Assembly: GCA_951406725.2 (NCBI GenBank)
Contig: OX597822.1
Span: forward strand, 70,990,001-71,054,000
Direction of reading: 5' to 3'
Length of the DNA stretch: 64,000 nucleotides
Origin: Octopus vulgaris
Lineage: Eukaryota
Position 1 is the stretch's first letter; each line of letters starts with the position of its first letter. The translations under genes were made by a program, and so were the position numbers. The notes below the pieces were generated by a model. The model was not told the origin of the DNA and searched no databases. It saw nothing but the letters and a program-made list of their open reading frames with translations. Shown here piece after piece: positions 6,905-61,545 of the stretch.

Positions 6905-7106
6905 ATGTGACCACGTGTATATCGTTGACGATTTTCTTTCTCCGTCTTCCCTTCCTTGGACTTTTCCTTTTTTCTATATTTCTGAAGAAGAGCTCCACTT
7001 GAAATATTAAATCCTCCTTCTTTCTTTCCTTTCCTGAGTGTCCAATAACACTATACTTGTTCCACATCCTCACGTTGTTGTGTTTTCTCTTTGTTCATGC
7101 TTGTAT

Positions 7107-8907: not shown

Positions 8908-9798
8908 ACAAAACGTAACATCCCATACTGCCTAGCCAGAAGAATTTGTACTATTGTAGAAGATGCAAATATCAGGAACAAACGCCTAATAGAACTAAGA
9001 GAATTTTTGCTCAAACAAAAATACCCATCTCTACTTATAGAAAATGGCATACAGCGGGCTATAAAAATACCTATACAACAACTTAGGACAACCCAAGGAA
9101 GAGGAAAACAAGAACAAGTCATACCATTCATAGTGACACACAACCCATGTCACCAGAATATCTTCAACATTGCCAAAGCAAACCTTCCAATCATTGCCCA
9201 AAGTAATGAATTAAAAGACATAATCAAGGATCGAGCTATGGTGCTTAGTAAAAGACAGCCTAAAAACTTGAAAACATTACTAACAAAGGCAAAATTTGAC
9301 CTCAGCAACAAAGACCAAACATTCACGGTATCTAAATGCAATGATAGCCGATGTGGCACATGCCAATTCATACATACCGGTCAATATATAAACACAAAAA
9401 CCGGGAAAATATTCACAAACGCGAATATGAACTGCAAAAGCAGAAATTTAATTTACTGCATCAAATGCCCAAATTGTGAAGAAATATATGTAGGTCAGAC
9501 GGGAAACGCACTATTAGAACGCTCACGTGTACACCGGCAACAGATTAGAGACCCAGAGGTCCGTCAGATACCTTTGAGTAACCACCTAGCAACATGTGGT
9601 CGGAAAATATATATAATATTTCCATTCTACAAATTACACAGCCCAAGTGAAATCGAGAGGAAAATCAGATACAGTTTGCATAACCTAGCACTCTGGAGCC
9701 TACCCAGCTGTATTTATAGCACAGAATCACTCATCTTGCTACAGTATAAGATTGTAAATAAAACGTGAAAATCAGACAAGGTTGGAATTCTTTTTATT
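8908..9798 (+). mobile_element. 5'-truncated Penelope-like retroelement (RT C-terminus/linker + GIY-YIG endonuclease)
   Basis: Open frame 8908-9768: KRNIPYCLARRICTIV...CNDSRCGTC...NCKSRNLIYCIKCPNCEEIYVGQTG...ERSRVHR...HL; both flanks are (TA)n. Confidence 0.92.
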
Positions 9799-22492: not shown

Positions 22493-23167
22493 TCTCATAT
22501 GAATATGTACACACTCACATGGATACCCAGAAAAATACGCATATACACATACACACATATATACATTCTCTCTCATGAATACACACACACACAGACAGAC
22601 ACATGTATACACACATACTCACATAGATACACAAAAACTGTGCATGTAAAAAAATAAGCACGTACATATACACATACTCTCACATGAAAACACACACAAA
22701 CACATGGATACACAAAACAATACATACATACATACATACATACATACATACATACATACATACATACATACATACAACATAATACATACATACATACATA
22801 CATACATACATACATACATACATACATACATACTTGAATAAACATAAACACACATATAAAACATTCAAACCAAGGAGAGAGCCTCTATGTGGTCACACTA
22901 CCTCCTAGAAAAAGCAACCAAATTTTCTATTCTCACCTCACCAAGGACACACTGGACAATGAAGTCTTGGATTCTCAGTTCACAGATAAAGTAAAAAAAA
23001 CAAAAAAAAACAAAAACAGAATAGTTACAGCTATGACCAAAGGGAACCTGAGATGGAGTGGCTTTGATCAAGGGTCAGTTTCATCAAAATTGATGCGGAT
23101 AGGTGAATGGGATGATAACAACAATGATAGCAATGGATAGATATGTAGATGTGTGTGTATATATATA

Positions 23168-23201
<34 letters not shown>

Positions 23202-23209
<8 letters not shown>

Positions 23210-23781
23210 GCAGTAAAAAAGTTTTGGCTATTCTTTCTACTTAAAAGGGAAGGTGACTTACTTTCATTCACCCTTTGAATTTGGCTGTACTGGCAAGAAT
23301 TACGCTCGCTCTGATACCATGAGTTGAGGTGATGTCTTCTAGTGCCTTCAAATTTAATACACAATTATTAATAATTGAGACGCAATTATTTATAATTGAA
23401 GAGTCCTACGCTGAGGAGGAAAATAGTCAGGTAAGACATAATTATTTAATTTTTATGCTCTGCAATGACTTAATTCCGAAACGTGTGTCCGTAGGTAACT
23501 TAATATAGAATGATTTTCGTCATTTCTTTCTCTTTTGCCTGCGTCGTTTGTTTTTTAAGTGCTTTGGTTTTACTGGGATCTCCCTTTTAAGTAGAAAGAA
23601 TAGCCAAAACTTTTTGACTGCTATTTCTAAATTCGGTGTGTGGTGAGGCAAATCGTTGCTGAACCCTTAATTACTTAGTATTACTTGAACCTTCCTTGAA
23701 TGGGTCTTTTACATGCCGAACTCTACTTGGTGAAATTGACGATTATTTCTAAATTAATTAATTGATTTCACCCTTTATTAT

Positions 23782-23785
<4 letters not shown>
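23202..23785 (+). mobile_element. Non-coding Penelope-like element with inverted 5' segment and hammerhead
   Basis: (TA)n flanks; 23202-23250 is the reverse complement of 23581-23629 (48/49). Confidence 0.7.
23405..23495 (+). ncRNA. Type I hammerhead ribozyme, canonical core
   Basis: Stem I CCTACG (23405-10)/CGTAGG (23490-95); core CTGAGGA (23411-17); stem II GGAA/TTCC extended by AGTCA/TGACT and CATAA/TTATG; GAAA (23478-81); stem III AC-GTGT-GT; GUC cleavage triplet at 23487-89. Confidence 0.85.
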
Positions 23786-23815
<30 letters not shown>

Positions 23816-26299: not shown

Positions 26300-26920
26300 G
26301 TCATGGCTGATGTTGGTGCTGCCTGATTGGCACTCATGTTGGTGGCACGTAATAAGCACCATTCAAGTGTGGGTTGATGCCTGTGCCGCCTGACTGGCTT
26401 CCCATGCTGGTGGCTTGTAAAAACCACCATCCGAACTTGGTCGATGCCAGTGTCCCCCAACTGGCTCCTGTGTCAGTGGCACATAAAAAGCACCATCCAA
26501 ACATGGTCAATGCCAGTGACCCCTGACTGGCTCCCATGCTGGTGGCATGTAAAAGCACCATCCAAACATGGTCAATGCCAGTGCCCCCCGATTGGCTCCT
26601 GTACTGGTGTACGTGAAAAGCACCATCCGAACCTGGTCAATGCCAGTGACACCCGAAAGGCTCCCGTGCCAGTGGCACATAAAAAACACCATCTGAACAT
26701 GGTCAATGCCAGTGACCCCTGACTGGCTCCCATGCTGGTGGCATGTAAAAGCACCCACTACACTCTTGGAGTGGTTGGTATTAGGAAGGGCATCCAACTG
26801 TAGAAACCCTGCAAGATCAAATTGGAGCCTGGTGCAGCCTACTGGCTTGCCAGTCCTCAGTCAAACCATCCAACCCATTCCAGCATGGGAAACAGACATT
26901 AAACAATGATGTTGATGATG
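26300..26920 (+). mobile_element. Family C repeat with expanded ~62-bp internal tandem array
   Basis: About 7 units of GGTGGCA(C/T)(A/G)TAAAAGCACCATCC(A/G)AACATGGTCAATGCCAGTG.. Confidence 0.85.
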
Positions 26921-46913: not shown

Positions 46914-48470
46914 TATACAAATTCATCCTACTGAACAACTATTTCATGTTCGATACAGTTCACTATCGACAAAAATGTGGAATTGCAATGGGAACCTGAG
47001 CTGCTCCAGTGATTGCAAACTTTGTGATGGGTTACCTAGAGCTTAAAATATATCAGTCATCACTACAAAAATATGGCACCTCATTTGATTGCTATTTAAA
47101 GGAGAACTGGAAGAGGTATTAGGACGATTGCTTTATACTTTGGAAAGACAGCATGGACAAACTCCTTGATTTCAAAATAAGGCTTAACAATATTAATAGC
47201 AACATGTAATTCACCATGGAGCACAGCAGTAAACAACTCCCTTTTCTTGACACCCTAATTAAAATAGTCAATAACCACATCGAAACAGACATCTTCTATA
47301 AACCCACAGATTCTAGACAATACCTATTATTCAACTCATGCCACTCCAAACACATAAAAATTAATATACCATATAATTTAGTGAAAAAAATCTGTACCAT
47401 AGTTTCGGACACCTATACTCATGAACGAAGACTCCTTGAACTCAGATCAATACTAATCAAAAGACATTACCCAATATCATTAATAAATGATGGCATTAAA
47501 TGAGCTAAGGAAATAGATATATGAACATTAAGGGAAATCAACCAAAATACTAAACCAGACTTAAAAATACTCCCATACATCTCCACATATAAACCTAGAA
47601 ACAACGAAGCTTTCAACATTATCATCCAAAATCTTCCCATCCTCACCGAAGATAACACAATGAACAAAATTTTAGGCTCACACAAAATTATCAAAAGCAA
47701 AATGCAACCTAAATCATTGAAAAAAATATTAACCAGTGCAAGACTATATCCATTAACAACAGAACCAAAAGTGAAAAAATGTGGTCGACCTAACTGTGGT
47801 ACTTGCCCCCATCTCTTGGAGGGTTCAGAGTTCCACTTTAAACAAGGTGAAATATTTAAGATTAAATAAAATTTCACCTGTGCCTCAGAAAATCTAATCT
47901 ATGCCATTACATGCTTAGGCTGTGGTAATAATTATATTGGCCAAACAGGAATATTACTCCATTGAAGAACTATTCTCCACAAAGAACAAATCTACCACCC
48001 ACAATACAGACAGATACAGGTTAGTGAACATATAGAAAGGTGTGCTAGGAATCTTAATCCTAATTTCCTAATTTTCCCCTTCTATCAATGTTCACAGAAC
48101 ACCTCAGTACAACAAAGAATGAATAAAGAGGCAACTTTCATCAATAAATATTTTCCACAACTCAATATGAACACATAACATAATAGAGAACACTACTAAC
48201 CTTTCAATTAATACCACTAAGCCCTATACATCCCATACACCATTTACATTACAGATCTATATCTACCCTAATTGCACCAAATCCAGAACAACTTACCTCC
48301 CTTACACATAATCTTTTTACTCAGGGACTAGTAGACCTGACACTGTTCAGTAATCGGTGTGCATTCAAAGCAATAATTTGTAAATTCATGAAACCAGTAT
48401 GCTTTTGAATCTCTTTAACAATTCACAATAATGACTTTTATTACTTTTATCCCTACCTAAGTTCATCTAA
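46914..48470 (+). mobile_element. Penelope-like retroelement pseudogene (RT + GIY-YIG)
   Basis: FILLNNYFMF..QKCGIAMGT*AAPVIANFVMGYLE; WKRY*DDCF (disrupted YxDD); LPFLD..FYKPTD; CGRPNCGTCP; ENLIYAITCLGCGNNYIGQTG; multiple stops; coding relic ends ~48178; starts at (TA)n. Confidence 0.92.
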
Positions 48471-55106: not shown

Positions 55107-56312
55107 CATCATCATCATCATCATCGTTTAACGTCCGTTCTCCATGCTAGCATGGGTTGGACGGTTCGACCGGGGATCTGGGAAGCCAGAAGGCTGCACC
55201 AGGCTCCGGTCTTATCTGGCAATGTTTCTACAGCTGGATGCTCTTCCTAACGCCAACCACTCCGTGAGTGTAGTGGATGCTTTTTACGTGCCACCTGGAC
55301 TGGAGCCAGGCGAGGCTGGCATCAGCCACGGTTGGATTGGTGCATTTTACATGCCACCGGCACGGAAGCCAGTCGAGGCAGCACTGGCTTCGGCCACAAT
55401 TCGGATGGTGCTTTTTACGTGCCACCGACACGGAAGCCAGTCGAGGCGGTGCTGGCATCGGCCACGATTCGGATAGTGCTTTTTACGTATCTCCAGTCCA
55501 GGGGTCCTGACATCTGCCAGGTGCCAGTCATAGGATTGGTTTGATTTCGATTCCGCTTTCGATTTCACTTGCCCCAACAGGTCTTCACAAGCAAAGGTGG
55601 GTAGGCATAGGTGCCTGTCATTGGATGAGGTTCGATATCGACTTTGCTTGCCTCAACAGGTCTTTGTGTGTCCAAGGGAGGAAAGGCATGCATAAGTGGG
55701 CTGGACTCACTTGTCCTGTCTGGTCTTTTCACACTCAGCATATTTCCAAAGGTCTCGGTTGCAGGTCATTTCCTCAGTGAGACCTAAAGTTCAAAGGTCG
55801 TGCTTCACCACCTCAGCCCAAGTTTTCCTGGGTCTACCTCTTCCACGGGTTCCCTCCACTGCTAGGGATTGGCACTTTTTCACACACCTATCTTCATCCA
55901 TTCTCGCCACATGACCATACCAGCGCAATCGTCTCTCTTGCACACCACAACTGATGCTCCATAAGTCCAACATTTCTGTCAGGGTACTAACGCTCTGTCG
56001 AGCATGCACACTGACATTACACATCCATCGGAGCATACTGGCTTCATTTCTCACGAGCTTACGCATGTCCTCAGCAGTCACGGCCCATGTTTCACTGCCA
56101 TGTAGCATGGCTGTTCGTACACATGCATCATACAGTCTGCCTTTTACTCTGAGCGAGAGGCCTTTAGTCACCAGCAGAGAGAGGTAAGAGCTCCCTAAAC
56201 TTTGCCCAGGCTATTCTTACTCTAGCCGTTACATTTTCACCACACCCACCCCCACTACTGACTTGGTCACCAAGATAACGGAAGCTATCAACTACTTCTA
56301 GTTTTTCCCCCT

Positions 56313-61395: not shown

Positions 61396-61545
61396 TTATA
61401 TTTCTGACGAAGAGCTCCGCTTGAAACATTAAACCCTCCTTCTTCCCTTCCTTCCTGAGCGTCCAATAATACTATATATGTTCCACATCCTCGTGTTGTT
61501 GTGTTTTCTCCTTGTGTTTTCATGTTTGAATTAACTTTATATATA
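61396..61545 (+). mobile_element. Short hammerhead-bearing element nested in a SINE's internal microsatellite
   Basis: Interrupts the minus-strand SINE at 61180-61718; homologous to 6900-7112. Confidence 0.65.
61401..61433 (+). ncRNA. Minimal hammerhead-like motif
   Basis: TTT-CTGACGA-A-GAGC-tcc-GCTT-GAAA-CATT-AAA. Confidence 0.6.

Follow-up and report, generated by a model that had tools for sequence, protein, structure and literature searches.

A non-coding repeat with a long-armed type I hammerhead motif in Octopus vulgaris, likely mobilised by Penelope-type elements

Introduction

The described elements closest to the repeat analysed here are the animal non-LTR retrozymes (PMC7229834; bioRxiv 10.64898/2026.07.22.740005), the Penelope-like elements (PLEs) of the Hydra clade (Craig et al. 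2021, PMC8557442) and PAc, a Poseidon element of Anolis (Frangieh et al. 2024, PMC11167929). Hammerheads with a short palindromic stem III are described as mainly active as dimers (PMC4209133, PMC6765202), and those of coral and mussel as cleaving as single units (PMC7229834). Hydra-clade proteins are marked, in the account of PMC8557442, by RWK, DKT and CxCx5C without DKG, and the clade inserts in (TA)n. The anole PLE has been reported to nick AT-rich DNA on both strands in vitro, to initiate reverse transcription internally, at two sites by which a tail is defined, and to extend on both strands (PMC11167929). A literature search for octopus hammerheads or retrozymes, or for the long arm described below, found no paper (Repbase, subscription papers and supplements were outside its scope).

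We analysed a window of 64,000 nt of the O. vulgaris genome, in which a preliminary description made from the sequence alone had placed a canonical hammerhead inside a Penelope-style element. It is quite probable, in our judgement, that this window copy is a 5′-truncated member of a multi-copy non-coding repeat of ~600 nt with a conserved type I hammerhead motif, and a passenger of a PLE reverse transcriptase (RT)/endonuclease, probably of the Hydra clade, whose ribozyme is predicted to be mainly dimeric and to be poorly formed by this solo, mutated copy.

Results

A type I hammerhead with a 60-nt stem II domain

The motif consists of the following parts, in window coordinates and on the plus strand:

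23405–23495, plus: type I hammerhead, whole (direct reading, descriptor, paralogue conservation, covariation)
23405–23410 and 23490–23495, plus: stem I, CCTACG/CGTAGG, 6 Watson–Crick pairs, read directly
23411–23417, plus: core CTGAGGA (CUGAGGA), read directly
23418–23477, plus: stem II domain, 60 nt (fold and covariation), folded into a 4-bp helix IIa, a 3x3 internal loop (AAU/UAA, last A at 23473), a 5-bp helix IIb, and a distal helix and loop
23478–23481, plus: core GAAA, read directly
23481–23488, plus: stem III, ACGTGTGT, 2 bp plus tetraloop, a decayed palindrome
23489, plus: C17 of the GUC cleavage triplet, with cleavage predicted after C23489
23496–23497, plus: bulge following the 6-bp stem I, with U1.7 at 23496

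Direct reading thus bore out the core nucleotides CUGAGGA, GAAA and GUC and the perfect 6-bp stem I of the preliminary description, and its extended stem II of ~60 nt corresponds to the 60-nt domain. As in type I hammerheads, CUGANGA, GAAA, UH and three helices are present and the motif ends in stem I. A strict hammerhead descriptor matched once in the window and at least once in 0 of 200 dinucleotide shuffles; our initial search for CUGANGA…GAAA had a gap limit of 38 nt, which put this long-armed motif out of its reach. Rfam at gathering thresholds gave no match in the window. Hammerhead_1 (RF00163) matched 23405–23495 below threshold (18 bits vs a cut-off of 34, E 0.33), a weak score likely due to the long arm, since the RF00163 model has a short stem II. 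When 23395–23505 was folded alone, stem I had a mean pair probability of 0.91, as against 0.0 in folds of the whole unit, in which context that of stem III was 0.01; the unit without its inverted arm folded better than shuffles (z −5.4, 40 shuffles).

Insertion of the window copy into (TA)n

The insertion is laid out as follows:

23158–23203: (TA)n target, left flank
23202–23250, minus: inverted partial copy (monomer ~398–447) of 23581–23629, 48/49 identical
23247–23250: GGGA microhomology where the inverted arm meets the direct unit, present in both (by comparison with paralogue 5′ sequences)
23247–23783, plus: direct 5′-truncated copy, monomer ~64–600 of the ~600-nt non-coding unit
23632–23720, plus: predicted 3′ hairpin domain, which includes the proximal end site (fold and alignments)
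23682–23783, plus: 102-nt "tail" between the two preferred 3′ ends of the family (monomer 498, at 23681, and 600, at 23783)
23784–23812: (TA)n target, right flank

The 49-bp inverted repeat noted earlier is real over 23202–23250, and extends in full to 23199–23250/23581–23632 (96% over 52 nt); the location of the element inside (TA)n was confirmed by the two flanking tracts, within which a target-site duplication is not readable. The right arm of the repeat lies 154 nt inside the 3′ end, so that the repeat does not pair the two ends of the element. A 5′ inverted piece was present in 18 of the first 30 loci, as befits the Penelope hallmark that the preliminary description saw in it and as described in PMC8557442, and its coordinates differed by locus, those of 398–447 occurring in the window copy only. 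The inverted arm is therefore a product of the window copy's own insertion event and not a terminal repeat of the family. A MITE or terminal-inverted-repeat DNA element was rejected, as the inverted arms vary by locus and 12 of the 30 loci lack any. The signature of Penelope-like insertion is found here in all its parts: 5′ truncation, partial tandems, a 5′ inverted copy, an optional tail and a microsatellite target. In L042, a ~71% relative, the outer helix of the 3′ hairpin domain has changed in a compensatory way. The window copy itself is solo, with a single hammerhead motif and no tandem unit.

A multi-copy family with two 3′ ends

A first-look search gave 2,749 candidate places for the element in the genome; the best 40, which were scored, are 90–98% identical, the window copy itself excepted. 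Sampling throughout took the best BLAST matches to the window copy or to a few paralogues, with the best 40 of 1,700–2,700 candidates scored per search, and is thus biased toward close relatives. As reference we used a natural monomer (L002:1441–2040; 600 nt, 34% GC). The full natural monomer region has no ORF longer than 53 aa, and the RT plus GIY-YIG ORF that defines an autonomous PLE is absent from the unit.

After de-duplication, 131 segments with an identity of 86% or more were used to map the ends. Of their 3′ ends, 113 fall at two sites separated by 102 nt (80 at monomer 597–600 and 33 at 494–504, with 18 elsewhere), and the sequence that follows is (TA)n in 93, the next monomer in 23 and other in 15. 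Direct tandems occur at 24 loci, 8 of which span two cleavage sites, and upstream of monomer position 1 these 24 loci have the monomer's own 3′ end, that is, cyclic head-to-tail continuity. When a dimer served as query, its 40 best places held neither a long tandem array nor a trimer. No copy fetched, sister subfamily included, continued upstream into shared coding sequence. None of 103 non-junction 5′ ends fell at monomer 302–308, where a pile-up at the cleavage site would lie. Five independent copies start within the five bases of monomer 116–120 (window 23299–23303), a cluster that may reflect either the start of transcripts or RT halting at a hairpin.

A sister non-coding subfamily, 75% identical (L224–L253, e.g. 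G000:C25:44610260-44615357), has 1,959 candidate places. Many of its copies share CCGAUGA and the loss of the pair adjoining GAAA, so that a sister ribozyme that is probably impaired seems, to judge by these copies, to have spread. One sister-subfamily locus has four units in alternating orientation.

Conservation and covariation of the ribozyme

Over 55 complete copies, the core columns hold no shared inactivating variant; shared variants lie at N7 or in loops, or keep the pairing, one distal stem I pair being the exception. Both U1.7 (23496) and the A that closes the 3x3 internal loop (23473) are invariant (55/55), and we take them, by analogy with the hammerhead literature, to be candidates for a loop 1–loop 2 contact. 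The covariation alignment had 45 rows (44 distinct), made up of 38 of the 55 family copies and 7 rows of the 75%-identical sister subfamily. Across the 44 distinct rows, 93.9% of cells are paired, compared with 17–39% for slid controls. Six of 29 pairs, in stems I, IIa and IIb, changed on both sides, a count that 63 of 500 shuffles reach, and this covariation comes largely from one subfamily split, with few events. That paralogues keep the core and stems, a check set beforehand, thus held for the 55 copies, with covarying stems I and II. A covariance model built from 12 near-identical copies was too narrow, returning over 25 sources the window copy, one truncated paralogue and one weak other motif.

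Stem III is a decayed palindrome

Stem III had been proposed to be a CpG-decayed palindrome, and the family agrees. It reads ACGCGCGT in 21 of 23 informative rows of the sister subfamily (30 loci; four rows from one cluster) and in both units of a divergent copy (L270), and because of this ACGCGCGT is, on sequence comparison, the deeper state. The window copy's own subfamily has ACGTACGT or ACGTGCGT; among family copies 23485 is A in 36 and G in 17, and 23486 is C in 52 and T in 2. The window copy has T at 23486, where 52 of the 55 copies have C and C is almost the sole letter in four public runs. The likely path is from ACGCGCGT to ACGTGCGT, and thence either to ACGTACGT, which restores the palindrome, or, in the window copy, to ACGTGTGT, in which it is broken. 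Predicted energies of the 8-bp homodimer are −13.3 kcal/mol for ACGCGCGT, −8.8 for ACGTGCGT, −9.8 for ACGTACGT and +0.8 for ACGTGTGT, so that the private change in the window copy takes the predicted homodimer helix from −8.8 to +0.8 kcal/mol; its heterodimers are predicted at −4 to −5 kcal/mol.

Four near-private changes were counted in 540 nt of the window copy, one of them this stem III hit that broke the palindrome. Its nearest paralogue is 1.7% different, the arms of its inverted repeat differ at 1 of 49 sites, and no identical copy of the element was found among the sampled copies, which were picked for likeness to it. The window copy thus appears fairly young, not brand new: the "young insertion" proposed earlier stands on the first two counts, less so for want of an identical copy. 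Its ranking as the best candidate for an active ribozyme was not borne out, since the motif is solo and no stem III homodimer scored was weaker than its own; the window copy is an ordinary, partly decayed family member. The tandem copy L102 (G000:C11:31733046-31733969, minus strand), with two intact hammerhead motifs and perfect palindromes, is the better substrate for a cleavage test.

Coding Penelope-like elements in the same genome

Young coding PLEs were located by a GIY-YIG family search and a Hydra-type endonuclease query. Those of Hydra type have intact ORFs of 947 and 882 aa with an Asn-rich insert; one lies as follows:

G000:C1:99946500-99954500, minus: coding Hydra-clade-type PLE (L203:3048–5891; also L204, L206, L211 and L215)

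A Pfam search gave no match for the 947-aa protein, in which RWK, DKT and CxCx5C are present and DKG is absent. A hammerhead with a 60-nt arm lies 1.1–1.6 kb past the ORF, and the hammerheads of these elements have a 56–60-nt stem II, a palindromic stem III, ~100-nt tails and (TA)n ends. As the resident Hydra-clade PLEs carry long-arm hammerheads of the same size and ~100-nt tails, they are, by analogy, likely helpers of the monomer family.

The autonomous parent for which the preliminary description had called for a BLAST search was not found by sequence in the sampled PLE loci: blastn against the loci round 30 GIY-YIG hits, 10 PLE loci of greater length and 50 of Hydra type returned no coding element sharing the monomer sequence, only separate inserted pieces of the monomer family, and local alignment of the monomer to five coding 3′ ends was at chance level (at best 9 of 200 shuffles). 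It is thus architecture and analogy that point to a Hydra-type helper.

A very young PLE of Neptune type is also present:

G000:C16:20834500-20841500, for example: Neptune-type PLE (copies L091–L096, 91–98% identical)

It has two ORFs, a 479-aa ORF1 and a 781-aa RT/endonuclease with a CX2-5CxxC linker and GIY-YIG, and also ends in (TA)n, a point against the choice of a Hydra-type helper. The hammerhead in its pLTR looks degenerate, with UUGAUAA in place of CUGANGA. Neptune-type coding fragments lie in the window at 46919–48166 and 8917–9609; compared with the 781-aa ORF, their amino-acid identity is 56% and 39%, respectively. Stem II domains of 54–91 nt and different 8-nt palindromes (ACGATCGT, ACAATTGT, ACACGTGT, ACGGCCGT and others) are seen in other hammerhead families encountered in the genome.

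Transcripts and other motifs

Contigs of public runs presumed to be RNA cover the monomer family, though contigs cannot show ends, strand or circles; none of those listed bridges the inversion joint of the window copy. Stem II contains CAG/GTAAGA, a consensus-like splice donor, at 23430/23431 (23430–23436), and downstream of the cleavage site a pyrimidine tract (23520–23559) ends in AAG. An intron over half of the ribozyme (23431–23559) was not supported: the sister subfamily has a changed donor, contigs showed no GT–AG joint in 4 runs or in a further check of 4 runs, and none of the 131 segments lacks the putative intron stretch.

Short-spacer CUGANGA…GAAA matches number 11 in the window, vs 3.6 expected (e.g. 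6982–7004 and 61404–61426, plus strand, and 56047–56074, minus strand); among them there may be hammerheads from other PLE families, minimal or decayed in form. Elsewhere in the genome, L167 (G000:C5:6546758-6546804, minus strand) is a textbook short-arm type I hammerhead that clears the Rfam cut-off at 45.5 bits, and ~400 nt further downstream the same strand carries a long-arm hammerhead. Tandem arrays of a GC-rich unit of 66–68 nt, presumably part of an octopus SINE-like repeat, occupy 26322–26755 and 55308–55488 of the window.

Discussion

The monomer family probably owes its spread to an enzyme borrowed from Penelope-type elements. In the mechanism that we propose, a tandem copy would be transcribed, and the two hammerheads of the transcript, paired via the 8-nt palindrome, would release a monomer by cleavage, with circularisation possible. 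The helper protein would nick both strands of a (TA)n tract and cDNA would be primed at an internal site, monomer 498 or 600; two cDNAs joining at their truncated ends via microhomology would then leave an inverted arm and a direct unit, with GGGA as the joint in the window copy. Within the ribozyme, the long arm would retain the usual 4-bp helix II and make the loop 1–loop 2 contact through its internal loop, not a hairpin loop.

The template can be narrowed down. Since copies read through two cleavage sites and no 5′ ends lie at the site, the cleaved linear monomer is excluded as the usual template; a re-ligated circle and an uncleaved tandem transcript both fit. That the latter is used, with the hammerhead a conserved passenger unneeded for insertion, is a variant of the monomer-excision step compatible with the rest of our proposal, and to it we give a little less than an even chance. 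It accords with the read-through at 8 of the 24 tandem loci, the 0 of 103 non-junction 5′ ends at monomer 302–308, the lack of a trimer among the 40 scored places and the spread of defective-looking sister motifs, and hammerhead mutants of the anole PLE are reported to insert normally (PMC11167929). However, a re-ligated circle yields the identical read-through pattern, the conservation of stems and palindrome includes compensatory changes, and the retrozymes of coral, mussel and axolotl are described as accumulating as circles (PMC7229834). Cleavage may be dispensable for spread, because many sister copies share core or stem II changes.

Whether the window copy is itself an active, self-cleaving monomeric ribozyme, as the preliminary description read it, is a separate matter, and we think this unlikely. 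No damage is seen in its core, in stems I and II or at U1.7, 2 bp are kept in the monomeric stem III, and invertebrate retrozymes with a short stem III are reported to cleave singly in vitro, at ~0.8/min in coral and ~0.1/min in mussel (PMC7229834). Against this stand the pair probabilities in context (stem III 0.01, stem I 0.0), the homodimer helix at +0.8 kcal/mol with heterodimers at −4 to −5, and the report from Xenopus that only 1 of 9 tested dimers cleaved (bioRxiv 10.64898/2026.07.22.740005). We find it quite improbable that the unit represents the pseudo-LTR of some autonomous PLE, rare or decayed, with its copies being 5′-truncated insertions of that element: coding Hydra-type elements do share the hammerhead architecture and tail length, and a rare coding member could be missed where the best 40 of 1,700–2,700 candidates were scored per search, but in the 24 tandem loci the monomer's own 3′ end precedes position 1, and no fetched copy, sister subfamily included, runs upstream into shared coding sequence. 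Beyond the passenger reading that we prefer, one may speculate, at long odds, that a separate class of hammerhead is common to the PLEs of octopods and to their non-coding passengers, with a stem II arm of 55–90 nt and a tertiary contact via the internal loop, in which the arm would be a control element (for protein docking or, in the monomer family, as a 5′ splice site making splicing and self-cleavage mutually exclusive), and that a Hydra-clade RT would mobilise the passengers by structure and not by sequence.

If confirmed, these findings would extend animal retrozymes to a cephalopod genome, and would make long-armed type I hammerheads missed by the Rfam model common there, in coding PLEs as well as in passengers. 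With its three palindrome states and its solo and tandem copies, the monomer family offers natural mutants for testing the need of PLE hammerheads for dimerisation and the role of cleavage in transposition.

Comparison with known systems

The monomer family resembles the animal non-LTR retrozymes in the features that can be tested, and is a long-armed variant of them. Like those described (PMC7229834; bioRxiv 10.64898/2026.07.22.740005), it is a non-coding AT-rich repeat (34% GC here) with one type I hammerhead per unit, a short palindromic stem III, monomers and partial dimers, and co-existing autonomous PLEs, and its 600 nt fall within the 51–972 bp range given for retrozymes (bioRxiv 10.64898/2026.07.22.740005). 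Hammerheads in consecutive tandem units, as in retrozymes, were found in the family (L102; 8 of 24 tandems), the window copy being solo. In contrast to the 4-bp stem II hairpin of the retrozymes described, the monomer family has a 60-nt stem II domain, and it differs further in its strong (TA)n targeting, two fixed ends, 5′ inversions and no long arrays seen; retrozymes are reported to accumulate as circles, whereas the monomer family is known here from DNA sequence and contigs.

With the Hydra-clade PLEs described by Craig et al. 2021 (PMC8557442) it shares (TA)n insertion, a canonical hammerhead, a tail, partial tandems and inversions, and with the members resident in this genome a long-arm hammerhead of the same length. 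Those elements encode a protein, whereas the monomer unit encodes none and has no significant similarity to the resident Hydra-type elements examined. The two internal 3′ end sites that define a tail and the AT-rich targets are shared with the PAc Poseidon element of Anolis (Frangieh et al. 2024, PMC11167929), whose both-strand priming would explain the inversions of the monomer family; PAc is autonomous and has a short tail (30–40 bp, as described for Penelope), compared with 102 nt in the monomer family.
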